Position numbers and translations under genes: made by a program. Shown here in pieces: positions 1,706 to 64,000 of a stretch of 64,000 bases of DNA (position 1 is the stretch's first letter; each line of letters begins with the position of its first letter). Source of the stretch: Deltaproteobacteria bacterium HGW-Deltaproteobacteria-2 (GTDB lineage Bacteria > Desulfobacterota > Syntrophia > Syntrophales > Smithellaceae); the NCBI GenBank assembly GCA_002840505.1, contig PHBC01000002.1, forward strand, positions 517,544 to 581,543, read 5' to 3'. A model generated the notes under the pieces. That model searched no databases. It was not told the DNA's origin and saw only the letters and a list, made by a program, of their open reading frames with translations.

Positions 1706-4471
1706 TTAATCAGCGTCGGGAAAAGTAAAAAGAACTGTTCTCTCTGCCTGTTTCTGCGCGGGAGCGTTTTGATCGGCACTGTTTTCCTGATATAAATCCT
1801 TCGGTATTACGGTTTTTATTCGCTTATCACCGTCGGTTTCTTTTTGAACACCTTTTTGTGATAGTGGCGTCTGAACAGAAGGTATTGAAATAGAGGTTTT
1901 TGAAACAACGCATTGAATTTCTCCCAGATCGGTAATAGTTTCTCCTGCCTCGGTAAATGTAACGGTAAACCCGCATTTGCCGCCCTCATAATCCACAGTG
2001 GCGCTATAGGTGCCCGGCAAGATTGTATTTCCACCTGATTTTCTTAGTTTCGCGATAGCGCTGCAACTCTGGTTATTCTGGCTATCGGCAGCATCTGCGT
2101 TCGTTTCTGCGGATAGGCTGTTTTCAATATAAAATTCCCCTCCTTTTCCAGTGGGGTACGACAAATTCTTTTCACCTGTTTTCATGGATATTTCTACAAA
2201 TTCCAGCGGTTCTTTTTTCCCTTCTTTTTGCACAACCAGTGTTCCTGTGAGCGCCCGAACCTGCCGTGCGTCGAAGTAAACGCAGGAACCGCTCCATAAC
2301 GAAGGCGAGATCGACTTGTTCACGTCGGATATACTGTAATCGATCGGAATATTTTTTGTATCGAGCGTGATCTTGTTTTGGCCGTAGGAAGCAAGTGTCG
2401 GCACAACCATTGTACCGGAAGAACTTGCTTTTCCAATCTCCTGACCATTATTGAGCACCGCGGCCCCAGGCACTTCTTTATTAAGCACCACGATGCTGAA
2501 ACTATCGCTGACCGGCCGCGAGAAACCAAAAAATCCTCCGGTATACACAAGCGATCCGGCGGCTGAAAAATTATACGATTCGGTAGTTGTACCGGCGGTG
2601 TTCTGCATGGTGGCATCAACAGAATAGATGCCGTATTTGGCATTATACTGAACATAGGGATTGAACGCGGTTGTTGTATTTGTCGCAGTTTCGGAACGAT
2701 TGAGGGAAGCACGATAGCCGACACCTTCCCCGACGGGTACGTCTTTTTGTATTTGCAGAGTTTCCGAATTAACGTCGCCGCTGCCGGCGCTTGCTTGTGC
2801 GGAACCCCGAATACCCTTACCCAGATCAAAGTTGAGACCGACATAACAACTGTAAGTTGTATTCTTCGTTGTATCGGTGGTTGTATGGGTAACCGAACCG
2901 GTCGCAAAGAGGCTGATTGATTTGTAGAGCGTTCGGGAATAGTTTAGAGAAATGACGCGCGTATCAACACCCTTGAACGTTGCGGACTCCGCGTAATTGA
3001 CAGAAAAACTCCCCAGAGGATTCAGCAGTAAACCCGCTCCCACGTTCATTTCCAGTTGATTGCTGTCAGCCGTTTGCAGGGGATTGCCGACGGTCGCGTA
3101 GTCCCGGGAATATCCACGCAACAGAGCATTCGTGTTGAAACTGCCGAGCTGATAGGAATGCTGGAGTGATACTGCTCCTCCCAAATCGTTGCCGCTTGCG
3201 GAACTTCCGGCAAGAGACATAGTCAACTGGCCCAACTGGGGAATGGCAAATGCCGCGTATAGTCCGCCGTTATAGACACCATCAGAATCTTCTGTCCGCA
3301 CTCCGATATTAAAGTTATTAGTTACGCCGTAGCGATGGAACGCGGAAAAGGCGGCGTTGCCATAATCATCGCTTGCGATTCCATAATTGTTCCGCATTAA
3401 ACCAACATGATAACTGTACTCGTGCAGACCCTGCCGCAGCATTTGAGCACTAAAATACGCCAGATAGGAAATTTTCTGCACATTGCCAAAGGGATCTTTA
3501 AGCAAGACTTCAACATTATGGGAACCGGAGGATGAGTAAATATTTTTTAAATCGAACGACCCGGGCGTAATGGTCTGTTTCCCTATCAGTATGCCGTCCA
3601 GATAGATTTCTGCCTGAGTAGGAAAAATGACCGATCCCCTTAGGTCCATAACCGGCTGGGTTATGAAATAGGGGTCAAGCCTGTAAACCTTCGAAAAACC
3701 GATGCCTCCCATGTTGACGGTACTGCCCAGATCTCCGGAGTTGGCATACTGATCTCCCATTACTAACCACTGGAGATCACCCCGGCGCTCGTAGGTGGCG
3801 CTGCTCTGAAGCCGCGCGAAATTATCGCCGGTTGGTGTTTTCGTATAGACGGAATCGGAAGTAAGAAAAACGTCCCCGGTCCTGAAGCCCACTTTGTTTG
3901 TAACCGCAAAGGACTTAAACCCGTCGGTGTTCGTATAAATATAGTTCAGCCCGTAATTGACAAAGGCGCTCGTCTCCTGCGGATAATAGATATTCTTGGC
4001 CGCCGCCCGAAGTGAAAAAAGATCGGCGGCAGTTTTTCCGGATTCCGTGGTTTTGCCGATGATCGCAACGGTTAGTTTGTTCTCATCGAAAGTGTAAGTA
4101 ACGTCGAGCAGAGCGCTCAGAGGAACGTACTGCTCGTCCCCGCGTATGATGTTGATCCGATCTTCGGCGTATTGCAGTTTCAGGGTTTTTAAATCTTCCA
4201 CCCGGATGAACAACTTTTGCTCATTGTCGAGTTCGACAAAGAAATCTCCCTTTGATTCCGTGTTAACAATGACATTCACAACTATCTGAGTTGTGTCTTT
4301 CTGTGAGGCAGGAACAGCCGCGCCATTTTTGGGCTTCTCCTTATCGGATGTGGCTGTTGTTGAAACAGTAGTTTGATCAACATTTTTTTCATCCGCCGGA
4401 AATGCGGAATTAGTAAAAAAGGAAATAAATAAGATTATCGCAAGGATAAAAAAAAATAAACCTTCGTTCAA
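1706..4471 (-). CDS. Outer-membrane fimbrial usher (PapC/FimD/CsuD-like) of the SCPU chaperone-usher system
   Basis: A large beta-rich ORF (982 aa in the track). The N-terminal segment VIVNTESKGDFFVELDNEQKLFIRVEDLKTLKL and the plug-like AEIYLDGILIGKQTITPGSFDLKNIY resemble usher domains. It lies directly downstream of a PapD-like chaperone and SCPU subunits. The first ~60 codons of the track ORF (to 4654) read through two GC-rich palindromes. An in-frame TTG at 4471 precedes a signal-like NEGLFFFILAIILFISFFTNSAFPA, so the start is placed there; the start remains uncertain. Confidence 0.8.
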   Translation of the reverse strand: MNEGLFFFILAIILFISFFTNSAFPADEKNVDQTTVSTTATSDKEKPKNGAAVPASQKDTTQIVVNVIVNTESKGDFFVELDNEQKLFIRVEDLKTLKLQYAEDRINIIRGDEQYVPLSALLDVTYTFDENKLTVAIIGKTTESGKTAADLFSLRAAAKNIYYPQETSAFVNYGLNYIYTNTDGFKSFAVTNKVGFRTGDVFLTSDSVYTKTPTGDNFARLQSSATYERRGDLQWLVMGDQYANSGDLGSTVNMGGIGFSKVYRLDPYFITQPVMDLRGSVIFPTQAEIYLDGILIGKQTITPGSFDLKNIYSSSGSHNVEVLLKDPFGNVQKISYLAYFSAQMLRQGLHEYSYHVGLMRNNYGIASDDYGNAAFSAFHRYGVTNNFNIGVRTEDSDGVYNGGLYAAFAIPQLGQLTMSLAGSSASGNDLGGAVSLQHSYQLGSFNTNALLRGYSRDYATVGNPLQTADSNQLEMNVGAGLLLNPLGSFSVNYAESATFKGVDTRVISLNYSRTLYKSISLFATGSVTHTTTDTTKNTTYSCYVGLNFDLGKGIRGSAQASAGSGDVNSETLQIQKDVPVGEGVGYRASLNRSETATNTTTAFNPYVQYNAKYGIYSVDATMQNTAGTTTESYNFSAAGSLVYTGGFFGFSRPVSDSFSIVVLNKEVPGAAVLNNGQEIGKASSSGTMVVPTLASYGQNKITLDTKNIPIDYSISDVNKSISPSLWSGSCVYFDARQVRALTGTLVVQKEGKKEPLEFVEISMKTGEKNLSYPTGKGGEFYIENSLSAETNADAADSQNNQSCSAIAKLRKSGGNTILPGTYSATVDYEGGKCGFTVTFTEAGETITDLGEIQCVVSKTSISIPSVQTPLSQKGVQKETDGDKRIKTVIPKDLYQENSADQNAPAQKQAERTVLFTFPDAD

Positions 4472-4486
4472 CGCATTCGAAGGAAG

Positions 4487-4547
4487 TGTCCCCCGCCGGC
4501 GGGGGATCAAGGAGTATGCGCTTTGCGTGTCCCCCGCTGGCGGGGAT
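4487..4547. repeat. Two direct copies of a ~21-bp GC-rich palindromic hairpin element between the chaperone and usher genes
   Basis: GTGTCCCCCGCCGGCGGGGGAT (4487-4508) and GTGTCCCCCGCTGGCGGGGAT (4527-4547). Each contains a near-perfect palindrome (CCCCCGCC/GGCGGGGG). They stand out sharply in AT-rich surroundings. Confidence 0.7.
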
Positions 4548-4657
4548 AGGGGGTGGACGTTAATGTCGCCGTAATTCTCACCCAATTTATGAGTGCAAAG
4601 TCCTTTATCCACCTTCGTCACTGCGCGACACCTCCGCCAGCGGAGGATACGCAAAGA

Positions 4658-5458
4658 TTATTGTGCGCACATGTTTTTCTGAACATTCAGTGTCCCGTTG
4701 ATATTGCTGCTTTCTGTTTGAGCGCTCACCTCGATCGTCGCCAGTTGTCCACATATCTCTTTCGGGACGGCCGCTTCGTACGGAATTGACAGGCCGTTGA
4801 GGATATACCAGCCGGCAACTTCCTTGGTGTACATTTCCTTTCCGGCAGCGGTTTTTCCGCCGAACTTAACGGTGCGCAATTTAATATGAACATTTCCTGT
4901 GTTTTTAACAATCGCCTTCACCGCGCCGTTGGACATTTCGATCTTTTCTAAGACATAGCTCTCCTGTGGCTGTAGAGGCTTAACGAATATCGGCATCGCG
5001 AACCGAAACGCTATCGTGAGCCCTGCCTTTATGTTCTTATTAGCCTCCACGTCAGTTGTCTTTTTCGATGTGGGAATCTCTTCAACGAAAAGGCGATAAG
5101 TCTTTTCCTTGGCGGAGGGTGGGGTCTTGAGGCCTATTCTGACTGCCCGCTGCGAGTTCGCTTCCACGCTCATGATCTTTGGGTGAAAAACTATTTCCTT
5201 CGTGTCCCCATACACATCCTTGCCTTTTTCGTCCTGATTCCACTCTTTAACCGATACTTGAAAATCAACTTTGTCGCCGCCGTTATTGATTACGGAGAAA
5301 ACGCCGCTCTTTACATTGCGGCCCAAGTCCATAGTCGTCGGCTGTACCTGAAAATTAGCGAAGGCAGGAGAAATGAATATGGCCACAAACAACAAACTGG
5401 CAACCAATCCTACGCATTTATTTATTGATGCCTTAAACCCGCGAAAAATGTTCTTCAT
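4658..5458 (-). CDS. Periplasmic fimbrial chaperone (PapD/CsuC-like)
   Basis: 266 aa with a signal peptide (…LLFVAIFISPAFA). It shows the PapD-like pattern FQVQPTTMDLGRNVKSGVFSVINNGGDKVDFQVSV and two beta-sandwich-sized halves. It sits between the pilin genes and the usher. Confidence 0.8.
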   Translation of the reverse strand: MKNIFRGFKASINKCVGLVASLLFVAIFISPAFANFQVQPTTMDLGRNVKSGVFSVINNGGDKVDFQVSVKEWNQDEKGKDVYGDTKEIVFHPKIMSVEANSQRAVRIGLKTPPSAKEKTYRLFVEEIPTSKKTTDVEANKNIKAGLTIAFRFAMPIFVKPLQPQESYVLEKIEMSNGAVKAIVKNTGNVHIKLRTVKFGGKTAAGKEMYTKEVAGWYILNGLSIPYEAAVPKEICGQLATIEVSAQTESSNINGTLNVQKNMCAQ

Positions 5459-5526: not shown

Positions 5527-6552
5527 TTAATAGCTAATCGTTAATGTTATCGTGTCACTATACGTGCCCGCCGGCGCGTCGTTAAGGGCTCCGGCAGGAA
5601 TAGAAGGTGTCAGCGCTAAATTACCAGTTCCACTACCACCTATGCTAATCGTATCGCCCTTACCGGTAATGGGGGTCGTATAGATAATATTATAAGCGAT
5701 ATAATCGCTTGTGCCATGTAAAAGCCTGTACCCCGTACCCATATTTGTTCCGCCATTAGCACCGGCAGCTGTAACAGCATACGTGTTCCCGGCAGCAGTA
5801 CAATAAATGACCGGTTTGGTTGTTACAAGTGCTTCCGAGGCTGCAACTCCTCCGGCATTTGCAACTGCGTTAAGAGTGCCGAAATCTATCACTCCGTTAC
5901 CACCCGTATGGCATCCCCTTGCGGAATTGACCGTGAGACTGTAAGTGGCGGAGGCTTGCGATCCGTTGACATCCGTCACTGTAACCGTAAAACTAAAAGG
6001 TCCTGAAACCTGCGGTATTCCTGTAATCGTAATTGAGGTGCCCGAAGTGCTGCTCAGGTTAAGCCCGGGGGGAAGATTCGTGGCTGTCCAAGAGTACGGG
6101 GTCGTCCCTCTGTCCGCTGTCAAAACAGCAGATGTTGTATATGATTGATACTGAGTCGCATTAGTAGAGAATGTGCCGCTCGTGAGCGTAAGGCGAATGG
6201 CACGATTGATCACAAGGGTGTACGCGCAGGTCGGATCGATGCCGGCCTCGTAATGTCTTATCGAAAGGTTGTAAGTACCCTGTGAGTTTCCAGCCAGCGA
6301 ACCCGACAGATCAACTGAATTAATATAGTTATTATGTAAACTCAGGCCGTTCGGATACCAGCAAAACAAACAGTACCAACCTGGGGTTTGATTCCCGTTG
6401 GTACCAGTAAAGGTGTACAAATAGGGTCTCCCCACTGTACCTTGCGGGAGCGTTCCCGGGCACGTAATTGCAGCATAAGCAGTGCTGATCAGCCCTGTCA
6501 GCAATAATGAAATAATAATATATCCTGCTTTCAGATTCTTACGCTTCATCAA
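5527..6552 (-). CDS. SCPU-domain pilus subunit with two N-terminal Ig-like (He_PIG-type) domains; candidate adhesin
   Basis: 341 aa with a signal peptide. It contains two segments with the 'putative Ig' pattern: LPQGTVGRPYLYTFTGTNG… and TTPYSWTATNLPPGLNLSSTSGTSITITGIPQVSGPFSFTVTVTDVNGSQASATYSLTV. A pilin domain follows, ending GTYSDTITLTISY like the two SCPU subunits upstream. Confidence 0.75.
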   Translation of the reverse strand: MMKRKNLKAGYIIISLLLTGLISTAYAAITCPGTLPQGTVGRPYLYTFTGTNGNQTPGWYCLFCWYPNGLSLHNNYINSVDLSGSLAGNSQGTYNLSIRHYEAGIDPTCAYTLVINRAIRLTLTSGTFSTNATQYQSYTTSAVLTADRGTTPYSWTATNLPPGLNLSSTSGTSITITGIPQVSGPFSFTVTVTDVNGSQASATYSLTVNSARGCHTGGNGVIDFGTLNAVANAGGVAASEALVTTKPVIYCTAAGNTYAVTAAGANGGTNMGTGYRLLHGTSDYIAYNIIYTTPITGKGDTISIGGSGTGNLALTPSIPAGALNDAPAGTYSDTITLTISY

Positions 6553-6646: not shown

Positions 6647-7177
6647 CTAATACGAAAGAGTCAATGTAACCATGTCCGAATAGTCGGTATGGGCAATAGC
6701 GGCCTGTGCGTCTGCCGCCGGAACCTTTATGCTGATACCCATAGCCCGCGCGGTAGTGTATCCCGCACCCGTAAAATGGCCCGTGCCTCCGGTGTCGCCG
6801 GCGCACATAAAGGTGTACGCGATTGCGTCTGCCGGCCAACTTATGGATCTGAGCGCCATTCCGCTGACACCACCGGATGTGCAGGTCTGATTAACGGCGG
6901 TTCCGTTGGCGCTGGACACATTAACCGTAAAGACTACGCCGTTGGTGCACTTCACCAATTCATCGGCAGTCGGTGAAAAGTTCTGATCCGCCGCCGACTG
7001 TGAATCAATAGTTAGCGGATTCGGGAACGAGCCATGCTGGGCCTCCATGCACGATGCTCCTATCTGCGCACTCACCGTCACGGTCGTACTTGCAAATCCC
7101 GAAGGAGTTGCCGCAAACGCACCTGTTGTTATGCTAATGGCAGCAAATGCTGCCACTAGCCATAATATCTTCTTCAA
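6647..7177 (-). CDS. SCPU (spore coat protein U / Csu-type) pilus subunit
   Basis: 176 aa with a signal peptide (…ISITTGAFA). The N-terminal strand is TTVTVSAQIGASCME and the C-terminal strand DYSDMVTLTLSY. This is the same architecture as the neighbouring subunits. Confidence 0.8.
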   Translation of the reverse strand: MKKILWLVAAFAAISITTGAFAATPSGFASTTVTVSAQIGASCMEAQHGSFPNPLTIDSQSAADQNFSPTADELVKCTNGVVFTVNVSSANGTAVNQTCTSGGVSGMALRSISWPADAIAYTFMCAGDTGGTGHFTGAGYTTARAMGISIKVPAADAQAAIAHTDYSDMVTLTLSY

Positions 7178-7227: not shown

Positions 7228-7710
7228 TTAATAGGAAAGCGTTAACACTAAAGTGTCTGAATAGTTTCCTGCTATAACGCCTTCAGCAGCTGAATGAGTA
7301 ACGGTGCCTGTAAGACTTAATAATCCGGTACCCTTGGCACCTATATTAGTACCAGCCGCTCCATCGCCTGTCAGCGGTGTATTATAGTCGATAGAGTACG
7401 GTAGTTTTGTTGTCGTGCCACCATCCATAAATAGATTTTTTCCTGACCCACCATTCAGCCCTCCATCGTTGGTAATCGCAACGCTGGTACCTTTAGTACA
7501 TTGAATCGAGATTCCTCCGGCAGCATCAACAGTTACGTCCACCCCGTCTGCATTGACCGTTCCGAACGGTAATGTCCCGCCATGAACATTACAAATCGAT
7601 GTAACAGTAGCTGTTGCGTTCACGCTAACAGTTGCTTGCGCCGCAAACGCTCCACTTACCATGGCAATAACCATCATCATCGCCGCCAATAGTACTAAAT
7701 ACTTTTTCAT
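7228..7710 (-). CDS. SCPU (spore coat protein U / CsuA/B-type) pilus subunit, probable major subunit
   Basis: 160 aa with an RBS AAGGAGA before the ATG and a signal peptide (…AMVSGAFA). It has ATVSVNATATVTSICNV … GNYSDTLVLTLSY. It is the first gene of the operon. Confidence 0.8.
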   Translation of the reverse strand: MKKYLVLLAAMMMVIAMVSGAFAAQATVSVNATATVTSICNVHGGTLPFGTVNADGVDVTVDAAGGISIQCTKGTSVAITNDGGLNGGSGKNLFMDGGTTTKLPYSIDYNTPLTGDGAAGTNIGAKGTGLLSLTGTVTHSAAEGVIAGNYSDTLVLTLSY

Positions 7711-8104: not shown

Positions 8105-8593
8105 TTATGTCAGGTAGGTTTGAAGTGTTTTATAACTCTTAAAATCAGCATCAACGAAGGCGGCTCCGACATGAATGCCGTCTTCTTCATCAAACACTCT
8201 ATTGGACTCACAGGTCAACTTTATGGGCTTGTTCTCAACAGGCAAATTGAAAACAACCTCAAATCTTGAGTTTTGCTCATCAATACGGATATGTTGCTTG
8301 AAATCCTTGGGAATTAAAATTCTTACACCGCCAAGAGAAATATTTGTGATGGTTACTATTCCCATTTTTTCAAGCTCCGGTTGATTAATCACGGCTGAAA
8401 CAAAAAGATCCTTTCTCGGATAATGACGTTTTTCTTTTTCAACACTTGGAAATGCTTTCCTCTCTTTCAGGTAACTGTTCAGGACATTTTCAATCGTTGA
8501 AGATAATGACCGCCTGTCTTCTTTTGCAACTCGAGCCAGGGCTTTATGCAAAGCCTTGCTGGCACGAAAACATATGAGGCTTTCTTTTTTCAT
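8105..8593 (-). CDS. Ribbon-helix-helix (CopG/Arc-like) :: PilZ domain fusion protein; predicted c-di-GMP-responsive DNA-binding protein
   Basis: 162 aa. The N-terminus, SLICFRASKALHKALARVAKEDRRSLSSTIENVLNSYL, fits a beta-strand plus two helices of the RHH fold. The C-terminal half carries both PilZ c-di-GMP motifs: RxxxR (RHYPR) and D/NxSxxG (NISLGG). Confidence 0.8.
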   Translation of the reverse strand: MKKESLICFRASKALHKALARVAKEDRRSLSSTIENVLNSYLKERKAFPSVEKEKRHYPRKDLFVSAVINQPELEKMGIVTITNISLGGVRILIPKDFKQHIRIDEQNSRFEVVFNLPVENKPIKLTCESNRVFDEEDGIHVGAAFVDADFKSYKTLQTYLT

Positions 8594-8706: not shown

Positions 8707-9831
8707 CTACTCCACAGGGTTTACGGAAATGGAAAGAGGCCACGCATAAGTTCCCGCCTGCGAAGACTCGTCAAAAACAAAACGATAGTTTAACGCTACT
8801 ACGGACGTGCCAACGATTTGACGAGTGATAATCCCGCCGTTGGGCCCGAGCGCAACTTCCCTGCCAAAACCATTCACTAGCGCTTCTTTAAAAGGCAATC
8901 CGTGAGTTTCGAAGGTCATATTAACTCCCGCCCTGCTGTTATTTTTGATTTCCAGAAGAGAACCAACATTTACATCGAGATATCCTCTTTTTATATCGGC
9001 ATCGGTTACAACGATTTCCGCCTGTTGTCTTAGCACATGCACGCTGGCCCGCGCCAGAACTCTCGCGGTCACCGATATCTGCGTACTCATCACCTGCTTA
9101 GATGACTGCGCGGCAATCGCTGCACTAATAGGCGCAAGAGACAGGGCCGCGATCAACGCCGCCGCAACAAGCTTTTCCTGTATCCTGAGGCCATGATCGA
9201 TATGGCGCTGTTTGGCATAGCCGGCTTCAACCAGCACTTCGCCGATTTTCTTTCCGCTTTCGCTTTCGTGCTGACGTTTCAGTCCGTCTTCAAGCTGTTC
9301 ATGTGTGATGTATCCGGCGGAAATAAGCAGTTCTCCCAGCATCAGACAGGAAGGAATCTTTCTTTCGCCCAGCCGGGATTGAAAGGACAAAGTGACATCT
9401 AGTTGACGCTTATCGAGGAAACCAAGGCGCACTAAAATCTCGCCCAGTTTTTCGCCTGATTTTTTCTGTTCATCAAGCGCAGTATCGAGCTGATTCTGCG
9501 TGATGCAGAAAGCCTTCAACAGCAGTTCACCCAACAAGTGACGAATGCCGGCGGCCGCCATAATCGCTTCTTTGACCGTCGAAAAATCACGCTGAATCCA
9601 CAGTACAGCATAAAGCTCAGCTTTATCCAACGCGCCAAGATCAACCAGGATATCACCCAAGAGCTTATTTGTGCGCATTTGCTCCGCAAGAGCGGCATCA
9701 AGAGCTTCAGGCTCTATAAACGCGCCATCCAGCAGAATACGTCCCAGCGGACGCTTGACAGGCAGAGAATAACGGATATTTTCCTGCAATTTCTGCTTTT
9801 CTACACCTTTGTACTTTTTTGTAACCACCAC
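8707..9831 (-). CDS. Membrane protein with three tandem MshEN-like (T2SSE_N) c-di-GMP-binding motif pairs, one TM helix and a periplasmic beta-rich domain
   Basis: 374 aa with a GTG start preceded by AAGGGGG. It has six ~24-aa LGxxLVxxGxxxxxxLxxxLxxQ motifs in three pairs. A TM helix (LVAAALIAALSLAPISAAIAA) and a ~135-aa beta-rich C-terminal domain follow. There is no ATPase domain. Confidence 0.65.
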   Translation of the reverse strand: MVVTKKYKGVEKQKLQENIRYSLPVKRPLGRILLDGAFIEPEALDAALAEQMRTNKLLGDILVDLGALDKAELYAVLWIQRDFSTVKEAIMAAAGIRHLLGELLLKAFCITQNQLDTALDEQKKSGEKLGEILVRLGFLDKRQLDVTLSFQSRLGERKIPSCLMLGELLISAGYITHEQLEDGLKRQHESESGKKIGEVLVEAGYAKQRHIDHGLRIQEKLVAAALIAALSLAPISAAIAAQSSKQVMSTQISVTARVLARASVHVLRQQAEIVVTDADIKRGYLDVNVGSLLEIKNNSRAGVNMTFETHGLPFKEALVNGFGREVALGPNGGIITRQIVGTSVVALNYRFVFDESSQAGTYAWPLSISVNPVE

Positions 9832-10407
9832 ATCGCCCCCTTTGGCTGCGATTAGTTCTGTATATCTTTACTTCTTTTTTCGATGCCATGATAAAACTAC
9901 ACTTTCAGTTTGTCAAGCATATTTTTTATAGTGTATCAATTTGTATAACAATTATCGTTTAATATCATGAATTACATAACATGTTGATTTACATTATGAA
10001 TACATTAAATTTCTAGAACTTAACATTAAGAGTAAAAAAGATATTTTTTTATAAATGAAGTAAACTGTATTACATTTCGATACAATATCGATAAAGAAAT
10101 CAATTACCATTAATCCATTTTGCTGCATCTTGAACCGAGTTTTGGTCAAACTTTACGCGGAAACGGACAAACGATCTTCAGACTGTAAAGTCCGCTTGGA
10201 AAAAGTCCTTATCATTACAACCAGTAAAATTGTAGCCAAGGATAATTTCTTAAAAGACGTGCAAATTAGACTTCCTTTTTTCATCCAAGAAGTGTATAAG
10301 TCTGAACGTTTGCACTATTTTTAGGGTACAGGACACTGTAATAAGAAGCCTGTAGCGCACAAATCAGAAGATTTAAATTACTTTCTTTGGGAAGAATAAA
10401 AGATTAC

Positions 10408-12201
10408 ATGTCGATTAACTATTTTATTGTATACAACCCCCTTACCTATAACTTGATGGATCTTTTGTCTGCCGATTCTATTACTCCCATTGATGTCATA
10501 TCCTATCTCACGGGTAAAAACGCGCATGAAATGACGTCTGAAAATTTTCTCGACTTTGTTGATTTTCAGCCGGAAAAACAGCGTGCGACCATGGTTGACG
10601 CTCTGGCTATTGAAATGTATGCCGGTGTATATATTCATAATCAATTGGCAAGGCTGGCTAAAGACCATCTAATTGTAATGGTGGATGACAAAAGGAGATA
10701 TTTTGCTCAGGTAATAAAAGAAAAAAATTGTTTACCGCGAGCCGTCTTTATTTCCGCCATGAGCTCCAGCTTTCCTGCCGCCGCCTCCATTGCTATCGCA
10801 CTGAATCACGCTAAAATACCGGTTGTTATAGGTGGAATACATGTGTCCACAATGCCAGAAGATGCGGATACATTTATTAGAAAATACTCGCCCCACCCGG
10901 AATTGATTTCAATTGTGAAAGGGGCCGGAGACTCAACCGTTATCACATCTATTCTAGATGATCTGAAAAATAATTCTCTAAAAAGCGAATACTCCGGATA
11001 CAATCTGATTGAAAACGGTGTCTGGGGAAATTTTCAGAATCTTGAGCCTTTAGAACCTCTAAAAATAAATCTCTTAAACAGGCTGCCGTTTATAAAACAC
11101 TCGCCATTGAAGGATTTTAGGATTAATCCTGTAGCTCCATCCACGGGATGTTTGTTTTCCTGTAAGTTTTGCTCAATTTCAACCCTGCCGGAAAAACAAA
11201 AAGCAGTTCAATTTCGTGATCCGGATGATTTCGTGGCAGAATTGCGTTACTATCAAAAAGAAACCGTTAATTTTAAAAACCGATATTATTTTTTTACACC
11301 GGACAATTTGTTTCCCAGCAGAAACAGTCTTATTCCTTTTTTAGAAAAAATCATAGAAAGTGATCTGCGCATCAATTATGCAGTCCAGATATCCATTGAA
11401 GTTGCGGATGATGAAGAGCTGCTTGATTTGATTCGGGCTTCCGGAGGTACTCATTTCTTTGTAGGGTTTGAATCTCTTGATATGCGCAACTTGAAGCATA
11501 TCAATAAGCACATCGTCGGAAATATAGAAAAAAGTGGAATGACAGTTTCAGAATACTATGAATCCAAAATAAAGAAGATTCATGCGCATGGCATCTCCAT
11601 ACACGCTTCTTTTATAGTGGGACTGCCCTATGACTATTATAAATCCAAAACCGATAATACCGCTGTAGATATAACAAAATTCTGTATAAAGAACAGGATT
11701 GGCGCTCAGCCAAGTACAATAGTAGATCTTCCTGGTTCTGTGTTTTTTAATGAAAGTCAGGAAAATAACCAGTTCATCTATGGAAAGAAAGGCACGATGG
11801 ATTATTTCCTGTCTTTATCCATTGCCGACCTTGCCGAAACGAACAAGATACCGCCCGACTCCCTCTACAACAGCCCCCTGGTCATCGCGTCAATGGTTTT
11901 TTATATATCAAGTAAAGTGGGCTCACCTCTAAGAGCAGTAATAAATTCTACAATAATTTTTATCAGGTCTTTTGTTCATCCTACGAAAAACGGAAAAGGA
12001 TTCCATATCTGGCAGCGTTTTATTGATTCCCTGTGCTCCGCAGTTTCCCAGACCGCTGTTGCCCTTTACAAAGAACAGGGTGATTCTTTAGTGCAATCAA
12101 AACATGGTGTCAGGGGAATCATGGAGAGGCTTTATGACGCGGAAAAAAATCCTGAAGTAAGAAAATTGTTTAAAGACTACATACACCAATTTACTGAATA
12201 A
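10408..12201 (+). CDS. B12-binding-domain radical SAM protein
   Basis: The CxxxCxxC cluster motif is CLFSCKFC. It is preceded by a Rossmann-like B12-binding-domain pattern (VFISAMSSSFPAAASIAIALNHAKIPVVIGGIHVS). The long C-terminal extension has hydrophobic helices. The track ORF starts at TTG 10387; the first ATG is at 10408. Confidence 0.8.
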   Translation: MSINYFIVYNPLTYNLMDLLSADSITPIDVISYLTGKNAHEMTSENFLDFVDFQPEKQRATMVDALAIEMYAGVYIHNQLARLAKDHLIVMVDDKRRYFAQVIKEKNCLPRAVFISAMSSSFPAAASIAIALNHAKIPVVIGGIHVSTMPEDADTFIRKYSPHPELISIVKGAGDSTVITSILDDLKNNSLKSEYSGYNLIENGVWGNFQNLEPLEPLKINLLNRLPFIKHSPLKDFRINPVAPSTGCLFSCKFCSISTLPEKQKAVQFRDPDDFVAELRYYQKETVNFKNRYYFFTPDNLFPSRNSLIPFLEKIIESDLRINYAVQISIEVADDEELLDLIRASGGTHFFVGFESLDMRNLKHINKHIVGNIEKSGMTVSEYYESKIKKIHAHGISIHASFIVGLPYDYYKSKTDNTAVDITKFCIKNRIGAQPSTIVDLPGSVFFNESQENNQFIYGKKGTMDYFLSLSIADLAETNKIPPDSLYNSPLVIASMVFYISSKVGSPLRAVINSTIIFIRSFVHPTKNGKGFHIWQRFIDSLCSAVSQTAVALYKEQGDSLVQSKHGVRGIMERLYDAEKNPEVRKLFKDYIHQFTE

Positions 12202-12688: not shown

Positions 12689-13159
12689 ATGATAAGGACA
12701 AACATTCCAAAAGGTTATACGCTAGTTGAAGTCTGCATCGTAATCGCCTTGCTGGCCATCATATCGACTTTGGCTATTCCTGCCTGGCAGAACTATTCGT
12801 CCAACATCAATTTAAAAACAGCCGCAAGAGAAGTAATGTCTGATCTTCTCAACGCAAGGCAGCGGGCAATTGAAGAGAATCTCAGTACTTACCGTATCAC
12901 TTTTAATGTGGGTGAAAACAATTATACCCTTTCACGTACCGACACCGGAATTACATACTGGACAAAACCATTAACATCTTACGGAAGTGGCATTTCCATA
13001 CAGAGCGTCAACTTTAATAACGGTTCCGTAGTTAGTTTTCAAAGACGTGGAACAGTAACAATGGGAAACTTGGTCCTGACAAACCTAATAGGATCAAAGG
13101 CTACCATTACTGTCCAAATAACAGCGAGAACGTATGTACAGTATAATATGCAAAAATAA
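12689..13159 (+). CDS. Type IV minor pilin, GspH/FimT-like (prepilin N-terminal methylation domain)
   Basis: MIRTNIPKG/YTLVEVCIVIALLAIISTLAIPAW shows a class III signal peptide with Glu at +5 and a hydrophobic alpha1-N helix. An RBS GAGGGGA lies upstream. Confidence 0.75.
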   Translation: MIRTNIPKGYTLVEVCIVIALLAIISTLAIPAWQNYSSNINLKTAAREVMSDLLNARQRAIEENLSTYRITFNVGENNYTLSRTDTGITYWTKPLTSYGSGISIQSVNFNNGSVVSFQRRGTVTMGNLVLTNLIGSKATITVQITARTYVQYNMQK

Positions 13160-13574
13160 TAAGGGAATATCACTGGTTGAATCAATCATTTCCGTCCTGC
13201 TCGTTTCCATAGGACTGATTGCTTTCATGTCTCTGCAACCAACTTCTTGGAAAACCAGCGCTCGTACCGATTATCTCGGACGAGCAATTATGGTACTCAA
13301 TAATGAGATTATGACCCAGGAACTTTGGATCATGAACCCCTGCAATACCGTAACGACGGGAACGGTCGATAAAGTTTTATATTCCAGCGACCAGCAAACG
13401 GCTCAGTCGGGCGATGTAAGTTTTAATGTTCAAACGGTTACAAGTGCCGTTTCCGGCAGTGCAAATACATGGAAAGTTACAGTAACGGTAACTTGGCCGC
13501 CTTTGAGTACACGGGGCATTACAGATAATATGATAGTCACCAGACAGGAATCTTTTCGTTTTGGATGTATATGA
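13134..13574 (+). CDS. pilV: Type IV minor pilin, PilV-like
   Basis: …NNKG/ISLVESIISVLLVSIGLIAFMSLQ is a prepilin motif. Size and position after the FimT-like gene fit PilV. Confidence 0.65.
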   Translation: MYSIICKNNKGISLVESIISVLLVSIGLIAFMSLQPTSWKTSARTDYLGRAIMVLNNEIMTQELWIMNPCNTVTTGTVDKVLYSSDQQTAQSGDVSFNVQTVTSAVSGSANTWKVTVTVTWPPLSTRGITDNMIVTRQESFRFGCI

Positions 13575-14263
13575 AAAATCATAAAGGCTATACATTAGTG
13601 GAAGTTTTAATTGCGCTTGCTTTGGGTGTTATAATCCTCTCCGCCATTTATTCATTGGTAAACATGGGGCAGAAGTCTACCTACAATATTGAGAGAAGAG
13701 TGGCGGCTCATCAGGATGTCCGTACCGCTCTGGAAATGATGTCCATGGAAATTCAGATGGCCTCTTACAATCCAAGACCCGACTATGAAGGCAGTAACTT
13801 CTGGGTATCTTCCGGGAGCTGCACTGCTTCCACTAATCAGATATATAAAGGTATTCAGACAGCGACAGATTCTTCCATCACCATCGAGATGAATCTCGAC
13901 GGAAGCGCCAGTATAGGCGATTCTATCAATGAGGTAATCAACTATACTTACGATTCTAACAACCAATACATCAGCCGTTCGACGAATTGTACAGGAGGTA
14001 ATCAGCCTTTTTTAGGAGATGTACCGGGCAATCTCCGGGCGGTTCGCGTAATTAATACCAGTGCAGTCCCGGTTTTCCGTTACTTTAATGCACTGGGAGC
14101 CGAAATAGCAGCCTCGTCATTACCGGCAGGAATTCCGAACGTTGCCAGAATAGACATTACTCTATGGGTAGAGACGGAAAATGCCGATTTGAATACAGGA
14201 CAAAGAAAAAAGTCATTTTATTCTACAAGTATAATTCCGAGGAACCATGTTATCATTAAATAA
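13565..14263 (+). CDS. pilW: Type IV minor pilin, PilW-like
   Basis: MKNHKG/YTLVEVLIALALGVIILSAIYSLV is a prepilin motif. The ~230-aa size and gene order fit PilW. Confidence 0.65.
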   Translation: MYMKNHKGYTLVEVLIALALGVIILSAIYSLVNMGQKSTYNIERRVAAHQDVRTALEMMSMEIQMASYNPRPDYEGSNFWVSSGSCTASTNQIYKGIQTATDSSITIEMNLDGSASIGDSINEVINYTYDSNNQYISRSTNCTGGNQPFLGDVPGNLRAVRVINTSAVPVFRYFNALGAEIAASSLPAGIPNVARIDITLWVETENADLNTGQRKKSFYSTSIIPRNHVIIK

Positions 14264-14732
14264 AATAAAAGACGTTTTAAATACGAAACATCAAGGTGGT
14301 TTTTCTCTAGTTGTAGCACTTCTTGCTATCTTGATCCTTATGGGATTAGGTTTTCTGGCCATTTCCGTCACGACAAATGATCTTCAGATTACCACCAGAA
14401 TCGTCGGAGAAAAGAAGGCATTGATTGCGGCTGAAGCAGGCATTAACATGCTTTCACATAGTTTCGCACCGGATACTTCATCTAGTGTAAGCGGACATGT
14501 GGTTGATTCCTCCGACCCGGCGTCAATTTATTCGATCAGTAATGCGACTCGTCCGACTTCTGGCGCTGATACACTGCCATTAAAAGGCTACGCAATTGGA
14601 GGAGGCCAGCAATGGGGACAGATGCTTTTTAATGTCCGGGTAACTGGTGAAAACACCTATTATGGAAGCCAGGTACAAATAGATGTGGGAATGGGCTACG
14701 GCCCTGTTGAGATAACCACCATGTTTAGATAA
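14247..14732 (+). CDS. pilX: PilX-like minor pilin / pilus assembly protein
   Basis: …HQGG/FSLVVALLAILILMGLGFLAISVTTNDLQITTR resembles the PilX N-terminal domain pattern. The gene precedes pilY1. Confidence 0.6.
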   Translation: MLSLNKIKDVLNTKHQGGFSLVVALLAILILMGLGFLAISVTTNDLQITTRIVGEKKALIAAEAGINMLSHSFAPDTSSSVSGHVVDSSDPASIYSISNATRPTSGADTLPLKGYAIGGGQQWGQMLFNVRVTGENTYYGSQVQIDVGMGYGPVEITTMFR

Positions 14733-14743
14733 GGGGGGCTTTT

Positions 14744-17700: not shown

Positions 17701-17824
17701 TCTCTATGTAACTACCAGCGGCGGTGGCGGCATAGACGGTCAGACTCAACGTGCCAATATAACTCCCCAAAGCCTGGTGAATAGGACAAACGTTCTTTTC
17801 TGGAGAGACACACGTATAGAATAG
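14744..17824 (+). CDS. pilY1: PilY1-like type IV pilus tip adhesin with N-terminal von Willebrand A domain
   Basis: 1026 aa with a signal peptide. It has a vWA MIDAS motif LLILDLSGSM (DxSxS). The C-terminal beta-propeller-like region carries the PilY1-type Ca-binding loop DIDNDGFIDTAYLGDTGGNMWRF. It is the last gene of the minor-pilin operon. Confidence 0.85.
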   Translation: MLIKKIITILFIIVLCLYVNISHADDTDEMALFTSSLSPDTLLILDLSGSMEWNPEGGTNIWGNSSCSGTFYSSPTTGYTTNCSRLAIAKRAIFGILDDNGDNSLTAADETSLGVRIGYMRFYNGNDTAGDYLTGYNRLSKAIGVTYRRIYCNSSSSCSINSVCRTCSCGSTCAEYSPCVNSECAYGGTPLAASLNEAKLYLDVHKTADGASGACRQKFAIVITDGADTYACSGNGTETQADMYKRRRESVAKAKALADAGYRLFVIGFGKSMPDYLENTLHWMAYFGGTDNPLIANTGSTSAYVPSAVTSCGASETTGTCDGSSTNCFANSNDPGNTALSGYAFIATDGDQIATQLKLAFSIIREANYSFSQASVQLNRTVDENYIYEGTIQPISNDPFWYGHLRKYTINTDGSRGSELWDAGTVLMNTSDSVRNMKTYKTVSGAGTIIDFTTSNLTNADLAVTTDDLRSKVVGFFRGESAYNLESWKLGDIFRSKPITVGTPSSFFEDVRDTNHAFATHRTNHKRATNDPVLGYTGRVVLVGANDGQLHSFKTSDGTEAWSFIPPNLLSRLKMIAHNTHPTTLTHQSYVDGPVSVADAWVPETANSGTAKSASDWQTILLFGEGQGAGTNLWSTSTNCDAGFNQTYSTTYPYYCGYHCLNVTNPLVPTYCGPTGSTTTKWLRLGLSSSQTYIGAPWSSPMIGRVMVNGNEKWVAFIGGGFSSPGAANSGKGIFVFDLVNGNLLWSYTKADNSDLDNPMPATPSIVDIDNDGFIDTAYLGDTGGNMWRFKFCRATSGTSCGTSNWTGGRFFQANSSSGIRPIFTTASVAKDGVGNIWVYWGTGDKLDPTSPNAQEKFYALKDTDFTSTRTISDMQNITDEGGTYSGSAYGYYINLTGQGEKILAEPTVFGGVVYFTSYVPASSNDPCAQGGTAKLWGINYTTGAGALNIIGSTPSTTLPRSMTIGTGIASAPVVSMRPGTDATPDLYVTTSGGGGIDGQTQRANITPQSLVNRTNVLFWRDTRIE

Positions 17825-24797: not shown

Positions 24798-24872
24798 TGG
24801 TAGGCGGTACTGGATTTGAACCAGTGACTTCTACCGTGTGAAGGTAGCACTCTCCCGCTGAGTTAACCGCCC
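24798..24872 (-). tRNA. tRNA-Val (anticodon CAC)
   Basis: The reverse complement reads GGGCGGTTAACTCAGCGGGAGAGTGCTACCTTCACACGGTAGAAGTCACTGGTTCAAATCCAGTACCGCCTACCA. It has a 7-bp acceptor stem, a D-arm, an anticodon stem CTACC/GGTAG with loop TTCACAC, a T-arm GGTTCAAATCC and an encoded CCA. Confidence 0.9.
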
Positions 24873-49158: not shown

Positions 49159-49170
49159 AAATCAGATTTT

Positions 49171-49271: not shown

Positions 49272-49296
49272 ATAACATTACCCGAGGTTGACACGT

Positions 49297-63503: not shown

Positions 63504-63515
63504 TCATGTTTTAAA

Positions 63516-63630
<115 letters not shown>

Positions 63631-63729: not shown

Positions 63730-64000
<271 letters not shown>

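Follow-up and report, generated by a model that had tools for sequence, protein, structure and literature searches.

The gene at positions 8707..9831 of the window (the whole stretch of DNA that was analysed, 64,000 nucleotides; all features given below lie on its minus strand) encodes a 374-aa protein (ORF list and translation) in which three MshEN_N modules are followed by a signal-peptide-like segment and then by an SCPU-like domain. Judging from its sequence and its relatives, we tentatively favour the reading that this protein is an accessory subunit, responsive to c-di-GMP, of the archaic (SCPU-type) chaperone-usher pilus encoded next to it. Since the gene lies inside archaic chaperone-usher operons in several phyla, c-di-GMP probably controls pilus assembly post-translationally via such MshEN-pilin-like proteins, which form a large, previously undescribed family (more than 247 close homologues of the 374-aa protein were found, all named 'hypothetical').

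To our knowledge, chaperone-usher pili have so far been tied to c-di-GMP through transcription (e.g., MrkH). As chaperone-usher assembly takes place outside the cytoplasm and without ATP, a post-translational link is hard to picture; the MshEN-pilin-like family offers a concrete candidate for it, conserved across phyla. Archaic pili (Csu, CupE) matter medically as drivers of biofilm formation by important pathogens, and two cultured carriers of the family (Pandoraea terrae LMG 30175 and Paraburkholderia elongata 5N) make the idea of pilus control directly testable.

Genomic context

The preliminary description gave no strand for 8707-9831; the ORF list gives minus. The stop codon occupies 8707-8709, the 374-aa ORF starts with a GTG that has GGGGG immediately 5' of it, and a consensus scan (11/12) placed a candidate promoter (TTGACA-17-TATCAT, 9888..9916; pattern match only) 57 nt upstream of the GTG. 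Besides the NCBIfam NF053729 modules discussed below, the Pfam and NCBIfam profile searches recovered no further domain in the protein and no catalytic one, bearing out the earlier remark that it has neither an ATPase nor any other output domain.

Directly downstream lies a gene for a PilZ-domain protein (8105..8593), followed by the pilus genes: an SCPU pilin that is probably the major subunit (7228..7710, 160 aa; Pfam SCPU E=6.7e-16), a second SCPU-type pilin (6647..7177, 176 aa; Pfam SCPU E=0.22, with a match to the SCPU profile from the loci), and, as the probable tip adhesin, a two-domain subunit in which an Ig-like He_PIG/PKD domain precedes a C-terminal SCPU one (5527..6552, 341 aa; Pfam He_PIG 2.3e-9, SCPU 1e-8). 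A PapD-like periplasmic chaperone (4658..5458, 266 aa; Pfam PapD_N E=9.8e-16) and an outer-membrane usher (1706..4654, ORF of 982 aa whose true start may be further in; Pfam Usher E=6.7e-22) complete the set.

The preliminary description had named three refuting checks (MshEN profile, fold of the C-terminal domain, genomic association); each was carried out and none of them overturned its proposal, which they support in part. The proximity to pilus genes recurs beyond the window, and the genomic association with chaperone-usher genes that the preliminary description proposed was upheld: an SCPU chaperone-usher operon adjoined or enclosed the gene in 29 of the 36 well-flanked loci and in none of the 23 MshEN-only control loci (Fisher p=1.7e-10). 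The linkage holds in Syntrophia, Nitrospirota, Deferrimicrobium and Betaproteobacteria, and in three different gene arrangements. Seven of the 36 well-flanked loci, mostly annotated as Nitrospirota or Thermodesulfovibrionia, had no chaperone-usher genes within 10 kb. At 33 loci the gene was found immediately upstream of the chaperone gene, on the same strand; in the gene maps, at least one SCPU pilin gene usually came before it. In the pap operon, papH sits between the gene for the major pilin and those for assembly, and this is the slot that the MshEN-pilin-like gene takes in many loci. The coupling had been put forward as undescribed, and the library that we searched likewise held no paper connecting MshEN with chaperone-usher pili.

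A pilin-like domain, probably diverged from SCPU pilins

The C-terminal part of the protein is a beta domain of ~125 aa, predicted to be a periplasmic beta sandwich (aa 262-374, 8710..9048, ending in ...GTYAWPLSISVNPVE; delimited by AlphaFold2, fold search and strand register). AlphaFold2 modelled the whole protein at a pLDDT of 82.6 and the domain at 84.7, with aa 262-372 at ~85-94. A donor-strand-like extension (TQISVTARVLA, aa 250-260, 9052..9084), recognised from the family consensus, precedes the sandwich; it is of low confidence and carries no assigned strand in both AlphaFold2 models.

The domain had no Pfam, NCBIfam or PDB sequence match, and its family, with 1287 representative relatives (clusters), is covered by no Pfam or NCBIfam model. 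Among the best 150 of these 1287 representatives, 85 were stand-alone proteins of ~168 aa, and most relatives of the domain are stand-alone secreted proteins.

The terminal strands of the domain had been said to echo those of the adjacent SCPU pilins, and at the level of the families the echo proved real. The family N-strand consensus, x-[LIV]-T-V-S-A-T-V-x-A, falls in register with the SCPU donor strand (columns 23-35), the reciprocal best offset being column 23 of 153, with a score of 6.7 against a maximum of 1.9 in 829 control windows. For the C-strand the best offset was column 137 of 153 (score 9.5, maximum 3.5 in 821 control windows), and both families have Gly at -13 and Tyr at -11, in the pattern D-A-x-(P/A)-G-x-Y. 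A paired terminal-strand scan of 3273 ORFs, devised after the family consensus had been viewed, returned SCPU proteins as all of the top 36 and as 48 of the top 50. Furthermore, reciprocal sub-threshold HMM matches between the domain family and SCPU were ~10-fold enriched, and the top non-SCPU match of the SCPU profile was a stand-alone member of the family (E=0.0011, database of 9488 ORFs).

The claim of a pilin-like fold fared less evenly: the beta sandwich and weak matches to donor-strand pilins stood, whereas SCPU membership failed by profile, cysteines and last residue. Pfam SCPU (PF05229) matched neither the domain nor 50 stand-alone relatives at E<=10, and hhalign of the domain against SCPU gave a probability of <1% (P=0.058-0.069). 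There is no Cys in aa 220-374, hence no SCPU disulfide pair, and Ala sits where 99% of SCPU sequences have Cys; the SCPU disulfide has been described (PMC10104325). The last column of SCPU is aromatic (Y70/F25/W5), that of the domain family is Pro in 100%, and the 374-aa protein ends in ...NPVE, with no aromatic last residue. The C-terminal aromatic of SCPU pilins probably anchors them to the chaperone. In the fold search (Foldseek) the top match was CfaB (E=3.9e-3, TM 0.42), accompanied by the PapG pilin domain (TMt 0.42), CanA and an archaeal bundling pilin, every match having E>1e-3 and TM ~0.4, with generic jelly-roll and CBM folds scoring alike.

Compared with SCPU pilins such as CsuA/B of Acinetobacter baumannii and CupE1 of Pseudomonas aeruginosa, the domain thus has in common the consensus of the 13-residue donor strand, the register of the C-strand, a similar length and a place in the same operons; it differs by the missing Pfam match and Cys pair, by a last residue that is not aromatic (Pro or other) and by an extra strand-turn-helix segment (aa 262-283) after the donor-like strand. 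The best reading of these sequences is that of a diverged SCPU pilin which would have kept the donor-like N-extension and the G-x-Y strand. The family is found in archaic pilus operons and has features expected of a non-extendable subunit.

Tethered or released: the hydrophobic segment

The sole hydrophobic segment after the modules (220-243, Kyte-Doolittle) is placed at aa 221-241 (9109..9171) and consists of LVAAALIAALSLA, Pro234 and ISAAIAA. The preliminary description took it for a single TM helix; that there is one hydrophobic segment was confirmed, and its anatomy looks like that of a signal peptide, with a candidate n-region (RIQEK), an h-region of 13 apolar residues, a Pro and a candidate AxA site at A238-I-A240. 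From sequence it could act as a signal anchor or, alternatively, as a cleavable signal peptide within the chain. The relatives point to the same anatomy (113 sequences): median lengths are 13 residues for the apolar run and 16 for the uncharged span (15-16 in 54 sequences), position +14 is P/S/A in 89, positions +18, +20 and +21 are mainly Ala, and AxA occurs in 76, as against 39 expected from shuffles. Listed examples of stand-alone relatives carry Sec signal peptides at the position of the segment, and in these the donor-like strand starts a few residues past the cleavage site. The uncharged span of the 374-aa protein itself measures 24 residues, a length that suits a stable TM helix, so that cleavage is less certain here than in most relatives.

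As an accessory subunit, the protein would have its three MshEN_N modules in the cytoplasm and its SCPU-like domain in the periplasm. Occupancy of the array by c-di-GMP, that of module 3 above all, would set how the hydrophobic segment is seated in the membrane or translocon, and on this seating would depend if the pilin-like domain remains anchored in the inner membrane or is released by signal peptidase I, to behave like the stand-alone secreted members of the family. With its donor strand the domain would fill the groove of a basal pilin of the fibre, or complement a chaperone-pilin complex, and, not being extendable itself, would bring fibre growth to an end or cap it, in the manner of PapH in P pili. 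In net effect c-di-GMP would govern the supply, tethered or released, of a non-polymerising cap subunit, and the direction of control could go either way (high c-di-GMP leading to more pili, or to fewer). For this reading it speaks that module 3 is coupled to the membrane segment by an invariant Q-x-x-apolar spacing (2 residues from Q218 to the first apolar residue in every sequence examined, i.e. 28 sequences and a 29-sequence alignment) and by a continuous helix (the last helix of module 3 and the hydrophobic segment form one helix over 208-243 in the AlphaFold2 model).

The parallel with PapH extends to a pilin-like domain with a donor strand that is expected to be non-extendable (capping is here what we infer), whereas PapH belongs to classical pili, depends on the chaperone and has neither a cytoplasmic extension nor a link with c-di-GMP. 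A bolder version, which we consider rather improbable, would make the domain family the missing terminator of archaic (Csu/CupE-type) pili, with c-di-GMP gating export or cleavage of its fused members. If true, c-di-GMP acting on an N-terminal extension of a signal peptide would set pilus length or number post-translationally, a new kind of nucleotide control of secretion. The existence of a PapH-like terminator in archaic pili has been stated as open (PMC10104325).

The main alternative, which we hold to be possible and somewhat less probable than the accessory subunit with a releasable domain, is the stable inside-out relay first proposed for this protein: a permanent single-pass TM helix with a tethered periplasmic domain, in which c-di-GMP would shift the oligomeric state or the helix position so that the domain binds or frees the chaperone, the usher or the pilins close to the inner membrane. 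Such a relay would resemble LapD holding LapG, or Alg44 (PilZ-TM-periplasmic domain) activating alginate polymerisation. The likeness to LapD and Alg44, a cytoplasmic c-di-GMP receptor linked across the inner membrane to a periplasmic part that acts on a process outside the cytoplasm, is one of logic and not of ancestry: no degenerate GGDEF/EAL, HAMP or periplasmic LapG-binding domain was detected in the 374-aa protein (Pfam/NCBIfam), which has one short hydrophobic segment with a signal-peptidase-type site and no LapG-type partner.

The 24-residue span and the unbroken helix suit the relay, and the MshEN modules, the operon linkage and the pilin-like domain fit it as well as they fit the accessory subunit. 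It also draws on the fusion of MshEN x3 and a hydrophobic segment to other periplasmic domains, namely a beta-helix (locus L038), unknown domains (L040, L043) and, in Geobacter pelophilus, FN3/Big, which suggests a general cassette for signalling from cytoplasm to periplasm and hints at a wider class of c-di-GMP effectors across the inner membrane. However, a LapD-like relay through a TM helix is doubtful, because the segment is short (13 apolar residues) and is then followed by a conserved Pro...AxA. In most relatives the apolar core has only 13 residues and a Glu stands 15-16 residues in, which is short for a stable TM helix, and the Pro...AxA is conserved amid variable surrounding sequence. 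Moreover, the relay would have to work with no HAMP or other relay module and over a tether of merely ~8-10 residues between the membrane and the donor-like strand, and the majority of family members do without a tether. Regulated release of the domain is therefore no less likely than a stable relay across the membrane. A precedent is the anti-sigma factor RsiV, which crosses the membrane once, has its N-terminal domain in the cytoplasm and sheds its extracytoplasmic part on regulated signal-peptidase cleavage (PMC4183432), which occurs only with lysozyme bound; the RsiV trigger (lysozyme) comes from outside, whereas here it would be cytoplasmic, and the sequences are unrelated.

The MshEN_N array

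Under the preferred reading, the accessory subunit owes its response to the N-terminal array, for which the preliminary description had read six half-motifs arranged as three pairs. These were recovered where it had put them: module 1 at aa 28-80 (9592..9750; NF053729 stretch, PilF alignment, AlphaFold2 and residue conservation), module 2 at aa 99-151 (9379..9537; NF053729, alignment with MshE 5htl, AlphaFold2 and conservation) and module 3 at aa 164-218 (9178..9342; NF053729, PilF alignment and conservation). It had proposed a T2SSE_N/MshEN profile search, and this gave a strong MshE-related match: NCBIfam NF053729 ('cyclic di-GMP-binding domain, MshE-related') covers three stretches at E=7.3e-45 and 150.6 bits (curated cut-off 38), a match that on this score is far above chance, with module 2 scoring highest (stretch 100-151 against model positions 2-53 of 53). 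The best PDB sequence match (phmmer) was Thermus PilF (6f8l, three GSPII/MshEN domains; E=2.4e-13 across aa 28-220), and V. cholerae MshE (5htl) matched at E=5e-6.

AlphaFold2 gives each module four helices (29-35, 41-54, 58-64 and 70-83 in module 1, which comprises two 24-residue half-motifs and a spacer of 5 residues), and leaves gaps between modules that are too short to hold an MshEN_C subdomain. The spacer of ~5 residues that had been noted for all pairs applies to pairs 1 and 2 (5 and 5) and not to pair 3, where it is 7 in the 374-aa protein; in the 113 relatives it is 5 throughout in modules 1 and 2, and 5 in module 3 of 103.

The protein thus resembles MshE and PilF in its tandem 24-residue half-motifs with 5-residue spacers and a putative four-helix c-di-GMP site, and PilF of Thermus thermophilus also in having three GSPII units in a row. 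It differs from both in consisting of the 53-residue MshEN_N only, with no MshEN_C and no ATPase after it, in the replacement of some Arg1 and Gly10, and in that the array is joined to an exported domain instead of a cytoplasmic motor. Known MshEN fusions include REC, HD-GYP and CheA (PMC5013675). NfrB, a c-di-GMP-activated glycosyltransferase with a C-terminal MshEN, is similar in that an MshEN module provides the regulatory input to a system that builds part of the envelope; partial matches to the MshEN_N modules also came from the NCBIfam NfrB models, and the UniRef name of a Pandoraea homologue derives from NfrB. Here, in contrast, there is no glycosyltransferase, the output would be a non-enzymatic periplasmic domain, and the target a protein fibre and not a polysaccharide.

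From the conserved residues we infer that the array is a candidate c-di-GMP binder. All six c-di-GMP-contacting Gln are conserved in the 113 relatives and kept in the 374-aa protein. Across the six half-motifs of the relatives, L2, G3, L6, L17, L21 and Q24 are ~90% or more conserved, except that L17 falls to ~75% in motif II of module 2 and is mostly Ile/Val in motif II of module 3; the 374-aa protein has Leu2, Gly3, Leu17, Leu21 and Gln24 in all half-motifs save module 3 motif II, where Ile takes the Leu2 and Leu17 positions. In modules 1 and 2, half-motif I has other residues in place of the canonical Arg1 and Gly10. Across the six half-motifs in order, the first residue is Pro, Leu, Leu, Lys, Met and Lys, and the tenth is Ala, Gly, Phe, Gly, Gly and Gly. 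The relaxed MshEN motif (PMC5013675) accepts [RKPN] as the first residue and [GAS] as the tenth, so several half-motif positions fall outside it. The lack of Arg1/Gly10 in half-motif I of modules 1 and 2, and the 7-residue spacer of module 3, count against the accessory-subunit reading.

These departures would also suit a different account, unlikely in our view, in which the MshEN-like repeats bind no ligand: the N-terminal 220 residues would be structural (e.g., delaying or localising export) and the protein a constitutive accessory subunit. Arg1 is counted as missing in three of the six half-motifs and Gly10 in two, module 3 has its long spacer, and the Pfam MshEN model (PF05157) found no match at E<=0.1, the short-motif NCBIfam model alone matching. 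A good sequence match is also no guarantee, as PilF GSPII-A illustrates: there, small deviations abolish binding and similarity alone is insufficient. This non-binding domain has, on the other hand, lost both Gln (PMC12002112), and the six terminal Gln and the ligand-contacting Leu clusters of the present family, conserved across phyla, are hard to explain otherwise than by binding. Half-motif II keeps Gly10 in every module and Lys/Arg at position 1 in two, and the motif is retained while the number of modules varies among relatives (1, 2 or 3). Other c-di-GMP elements lie nearby, namely the adjacent PilZ gene and a c-di-GMP-I riboswitch 2.6 kb from the gene. A single 53-residue MshEN_N is sufficient to bind c-di-GMP with a KD of 0.35 uM (PMC5013675). 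A further point against the accessory-subunit reading is that MshEN-type domains differ little in structure between the apo and bound states (PMC11731258), so that a large ligand-driven movement is not assured.

The adjacent PilZ protein

The PilZ-domain protein encoded next to the gene (162 aa; Pfam PilZ E=5.4e-9) carries, as read from its translation, the motifs RxxxR (RHYPR) and NxSxxG (NISLGG). Its N-terminus is, by sequence, a probable ribbon-helix-helix, and one homologue carries Pfam PF07878, which we take to be a ribbon-helix-helix family. The same gene order, with PilZ next downstream, is present in Smithella SDB (locus L005).

This neighbour could be a partner in outside-in sensing, a reading that we regard as very improbable, in which the periplasmic domain would report the state of assembly (free pilins, chaperone load) while the MshEN array would act as the output, either soaking up c-di-GMP or bringing in a partner, for example the PilZ protein. 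The absence of an enzymatic output domain on either side is compatible with it, as are the PilZ gene adjacent here and in L005, a weak PilZ match adjoining the gene in locus L001 and the sensor-type jelly rolls that the fold search touches (e.g., the RetS sensor domain, probability 0.80). Yet the known role of MshEN domains is solely that of an input module that binds a ligand, the periplasmic domain must be functional by itself, given that most family members lack a cytoplasmic part, and PilZ adjacency was limited, among the scanned loci, to this window and its closest relative L005. Least credible of all, and already disfavoured by synteny, is an incidental link to the pilus, with the C-terminal domain a generic carbohydrate-binding or cell-envelope beta sandwich of unrelated role: CBM32, CBM35, esterase-associated beta sandwiches and FlhE do score about like pilins in the fold search, and the seven loci without chaperone-usher genes would fit, but the linkage across four groups and three arrangements (with none in the controls) and the terminal strands specific for SCPU speak against it.

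MrkH is a PilZ-domain activator of transcription of the Klebsiella mrk type 3 fimbrial operon. The protein of 8105-8593 resembles it in being a PilZ protein encoded beside a chaperone-usher operon, a position that by analogy may suggest c-di-GMP control at the level of transcription; its probable ribbon-helix-helix N-terminus sets it apart from MrkH, to which its architecture is unrelated.

Architecture of the putative sensor protein

The sensor gene (minus strand, 8707-9831) is an ORF of 374 aa whose GTG start is closely preceded by GGGGG; a pattern scan also recovered a near-consensus promoter-like site (TTGACA-17-TATCAT, minus strand, 9916..9888). Its product carries six 24-residue half-motifs paired into three MshEN modules of 53-55 residues each (aa 28-80, 99-151 and 164-218), located where the preliminary description had read them, and the NCBIfam model NF053729 ('cyclic di-GMP-binding domain, MshE-related') matched three times (150.6 bits, cut-off 38, E=7.3e-45). 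Pfam's longer MshEN model gave no match on this protein, for which Pfam returned only a weak match to DUF4388, and neither Pfam nor NCBIfam detected a domain beyond the modules, in agreement with the earlier statement that the protein has no ATPase or other output domain; the initial observation on this ORF is confirmed. The best relative in a PDB sequence search was Thermus PilF, which likewise has three such domains (E=2.4e-13, aa 28-220), and Vibrio cholerae MshE was matched at E=5e-6. The AlphaFold2 model (29 relatives, pLDDT 82.6) shows four helices per module, a helix (aa 208-243) that runs continuously from module 3 through the hydrophobic segment, a disordered stretch (aa 245-257) and a beta domain (aa 262-372). 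Little was gained from a fold search with the full-length model, which did not recover MshEN structures.

The hydrophobic segment

Across 113 full-length relatives, the strictly apolar run of the segment has a median of 13 residues and the uncharged span a median of 16 (15-16 in 54/113), often with Glu next. Pro, Ser or Ala usually occupies position +14 of the segment, Ala predominates at +18, +20 and +21 and Gln at +22. A strict AxA within 14 residues occurs in 76 of these proteins, against 39 expected from shuffles. This signal-peptide-like pattern is retained despite variable surrounding residues, and the same pattern (...GIEPALA|EG...) is present in the Pandoraea and Paraburkholderia proteins. 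Judged from sequence, the anatomy of the segment in the family resembles that of a cleavable Sec signal peptide more than that of a stable transmembrane (TM) helix. This bears on the main rival explanation, the stable relay of the preliminary description, in which the pilin-like domain stays tethered through a single TM helix: one hydrophobic segment is indeed present, and its uncharged span in the window's protein is 24 residues long (aa 221-244, with AxA at 238-240), so that here signal peptide and TM helix are possible readings alike, and release of the domain is at least as likely as the relay. The distance from Gln218 (a ligand contact in MshE) on to the first apolar residue is two residues, invariant and free of indels in all sequences examined, which would place module 3 directly on the membrane or translocon.

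Predicted capacity of the modules to bind c-di-GMP

Module conservation was assessed in the same 113 full-length relatives. Leu2, Gly3, Leu6, Leu17, Leu21 and Gln24 (counted per half-motif) are conserved at about 90% or more across the six half-motifs, except for Leu17, which falls to about 75% in motif II of module 2 and is mostly Ile/Val in motif II of module 3. Modules 1 and 2 have a spacer of exactly 5 residues between their paired half-motifs; that of module 3 measures 5 residues in 103/113 and 7 in the subclade of the window's protein. The canonical motif is departed from at two positions: at position 1, Arg gives way to Pro/Leu/Met in three half-motifs and to Lys in two, and Gly10 is present in each half-motif II but modules 1 and 2 lack it in half-motif I.

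A single 53-residue MshEN_N binds c-di-GMP with a KD of 0.35 µM (PMC5013675), whereas PilF GSPII-A, in which both terminal Gln are lost, shows no binding, and restoring the consensus gave no rescue (PMC12002112). All six terminal Gln are present in the window's protein, and at least some of its modules are therefore likely to bind c-di-GMP. The departures at position 1 and Gly10 could be read in favour of modules that no longer bind the ligand, a weaker rival given the six retained Gln. Folding upon binding is an unlikely switch, because PilF GSPII-B is rigid in both its apo and bound states (PMC11731258).

The C-terminal domain as a probable diverged pilin domain

For the C-terminal domain, neither Pfam (searched up to E<=10) nor NCBIfam gave a match, and a sequence-profile search found no relative in the PDB. 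A profile search of 1.84 billion representatives recovered 1287 relatives at E<=1e-3 (888 at E<=1e-10); among the best 150 of the 1287, 85 were stand-alone (median 168 aa) and the others had one (23), two (17) or three (25) MshEN modules. In many stand-alone members the domain follows an ordinary Sec signal peptide with an AxA site, the mature N-terminus falling a few residues before an M-x-V-S-A-x-V strand, which places the domain, as predicted from these signals, outside the cytoplasm.

Modelled alone, the domain gave a confident AlphaFold2 prediction (pLDDT 84.7, pTM 0.71). No PDB structure was matched by Foldseek at E<=1e-3; the best match was the pilin CfaB (E=3.9e-3, TM 0.42), closely followed by an archaeal bundling pilin, CanA, the PapG pilin domain and FlhE. 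The fold comparison with pilins that had been proposed earlier thus puts a pilin first, but above this threshold and with generic jelly-roll and CBM folds scoring like pilins.

The preliminary description had also noted that the terminal strands echo those of the SCPU pilins (SCPU being the pilin domain of archaic chaperone-usher pili). Profile alignment did not recover the likeness (hhalign of the domain against SCPU: not significant, probability <1%, P=0.058-0.069; global mode produced a meaningless alignment), but the column consensus corresponds clearly at both ends, in register. The N-terminal strand reads A-x-[LIV]-T-V-S-A-T-V-x-A-x-A in the sensor family and A-T-V-T-V-S-A-T-V-A-A-T-C, directly past the signal peptide, in SCPU; the C-terminal strand reads D-A-x-P-G-T-Y-x-W-P-L-x-L-S-V-x-P (the final P being the last conserved column) and D-A-x-A-G-x-Y-S-D-T-V-T-L-T-I-T-Y (the final Y being the protein end), respectively, with Gly at -13 and Tyr at -11 in common.

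In ungapped scans, designed like the other terminal-strand tests after the consensus had been inspected, the best offset of the N-terminal segment was the SCPU donor-strand position (score 6.7; second best 2.2; control maximum 1.9 over 829 chaperone and usher windows) and that of the C-terminal segment was the exact SCPU C-terminus (9.5; second best -4.3; control maximum 3.5), both matches being reciprocal best. When the two segments were required to lie 95-150 residues apart in 3273 ORFs outside the sensor family (161 of them SCPU), SCPU pilins filled the first 36 ranks and accounted for 48 of the best 50 ORFs and 84 of the best 100. The C-terminal match ended exactly at the protein end in 131/161 SCPU ORFs versus 83/3112 others, and the window's own pilins came at ranks 105 and 118, past the 99th percentile for other ORFs. 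Between the two families, HMM matches below threshold were reciprocally enriched about ten-fold, and the best non-SCPU match of the SCPU profile was a stand-alone family member (E=0.0011).

In archaic pilins the donor strand is the N-terminal 13-residue strand, followed by a conserved Cys pair (PMC10104325). The C-terminal domain keeps a donor-like strand, unpaired in both AlphaFold2 models, has Ala for the first SCPU Cys, lacks any Cys and ends in a non-aromatic residue. Direct coupling analysis of 388 sequences (Meff 259), aimed at the strand that pairs with the C-terminal one, gave a signal dominated by gap artefacts and was set aside. The usual criteria do not place the domain in the SCPU family; from its terminal strands we regard it as a probable diverged pilin domain of SCPU type.

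Linkage to chaperone-usher operons

Downstream of the sensor gene, likewise on the minus strand, lie a PilZ gene (8105-8593), two SCPU pilins (7228-7710 and 6647-7177), a two-domain subunit with an Ig-like He_PIG/PKD domain and a C-terminal SCPU domain (5527-6552, a probable tip subunit), a PapD-like chaperone (4658-5458) and an usher (1706-4654). The receptor-binding domain of CsuE, the Csu tip adhesin, differs from the He_PIG/PKD type. The PilZ protein (162 aa) combines a probable ribbon-helix-helix N-terminus with a canonical PilZ domain (RHYPR, NISLGG), belongs to a family highly conserved in Syntrophales (64-100% identity) and may act on the pilus operon as a c-di-GMP-dependent transcription factor.

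Relatives were gathered from one genome per species, from metagenomes and by exact look-up, and the ORFs of their loci were labelled by profiles from the window's own pilus genes. The expected genomic association was found: SCPU, chaperone or usher ORFs occurred in 29/36 loci where a fused member was flanked by 4.5 kb or more on each side, versus 0/23 control loci sharing only the MshEN modules (PilB-like ATPases; Fisher p=1.7e-10, the loci being phylogenetically non-independent). Three arrangements recur: the sensor gene immediately ahead of the chaperone gene and in the same orientation, as a rule with at least one SCPU pilin gene before it (33 loci); the sensor gene convergent, 7-26 bp past the last pilus gene (25 loci, mostly Betaproteobacteria); and, in the Smithella clade that includes the window, the sensor gene 0.7-2.4 kb upstream of the pilins. 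Carriers include Smithella, Syntrophorhabdaceae, Nitrospirota, Deferrimicrobium, Casimicrobiaceae, Ramlibacter, Pandoraea terrae and Paraburkholderia elongata. For stand-alone members, mostly on short contigs, linkage is less documented (chaperone-usher genes adjacent in 5/16). Secreted stand-alone copies lie in or beside SCPU operons at the loci L021 (11321-11887), L057 (3618-4157) and L084/L086 (1675-2127); at L021 the copy stands directly between the fused copy and the chaperone gene, and one operon can therefore hold both forms.

An incidental linkage, a weaker rival in view of the controls, would accord with the seven well-flanked loci (mostly annotated Nitrospirota/Thermodesulfovibrionia) that have no pilus genes within 10 kb. 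Full-length members without chaperone-usher genes in that range, likewise mostly annotated Nitrospirota or Thermodesulfovibrionia, comprise L001/L030, L013, L019, L027, L035 and L051, and the metagenome loci L101, L117 and L144-L160; no neighbour common to all of them was found, one subclade has a HEAT-repeat gene as neighbour, and at L001 a small ORF directly downstream has a weak PilZ match (E=6e-4). The donor-like strand is most clearly degenerate in L001, L035 and L051, and also in L023, which is adjacent to chaperone-usher genes; its decay is not confined to loci without them, 3/7 of which keep the strand (Mann-Whitney p=0.32, not significant).

A possible c-di-GMP-dependent cap

The mechanism we propose builds on the module array and its direct junction with the hydrophobic segment, on the operon linkage and on a pilin-like domain that is predicted to be exported and to have its donor-like strand free. 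Occupancy by c-di-GMP would alter the presentation of the hydrophobic segment, the pilin-like domain would then either remain tethered or be released by signal peptidase I, and it could donate its strand to a pilin groove; presumably not extendable itself, it would cap growth in the manner of PapH. In many loci the likeness to PapH extends to gene order, papH lying after the major pilin gene and before the assembly genes. Outside-in signalling is a weaker rival. Regulated signal-peptidase cleavage of the proposed kind has a precedent in RsiV (PMC4183432), and the existence of a PapH-like terminator in archaic pili is stated to be unknown (PMC10104325).

The literature searched contained nothing linking MshEN or a similar c-di-GMP receptor to chaperone-usher assembly, in line with the earlier remark that no receptor of this architecture coupled to an archaic chaperone-usher system was known; in public databases homologues appear as 'hypothetical protein' or under a name taken over from NfrB. 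Both constituents, the MshEN_N module and the SCPU-type fold, are of known kinds; what appears new is that they are fused, that the domain family forms part of the operon, and the post-translational control that this would imply.

Other observations

Three-module MshEN arrays with a hydrophobic segment are also fused to other exported domains, namely a right-handed beta-helix (pectate-lyase/NosD-like), a beta-rich domain without assignment, and FN3/Big, at the loci L038 (9989-11815), L040 (9866-11203) and L043 (9779-11164) and in P0296 of Geobacter pelophilus, which suggests a wider class of MshEN proteins acting across the inner membrane.

A type IV pilus minor-pilin/PilY1 operon (ORFs 12689-17824, plus strand: GspH-like, three N_methyl proteins and PilY1) is preceded by a c-di-GMP-I riboswitch (Rfam RF01051, 12454-12543, plus strand, 64.5 bits, E=2.4e-10). 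Control by c-di-GMP therefore seems to apply to a second pilus system as well, at a distance of 2.6 kb. A B12-binding radical SAM gene (10387-12201, plus strand) is divergent from the sensor gene and another lies just upstream of the L001 relative, probably by coincidence. The window further holds a 5S rRNA and the 3' end of a 23S rRNA at its end (63515-64000, minus strand), one tRNA (24801-24872, minus strand) and a PyrR-binding site (49169-49273, plus strand).
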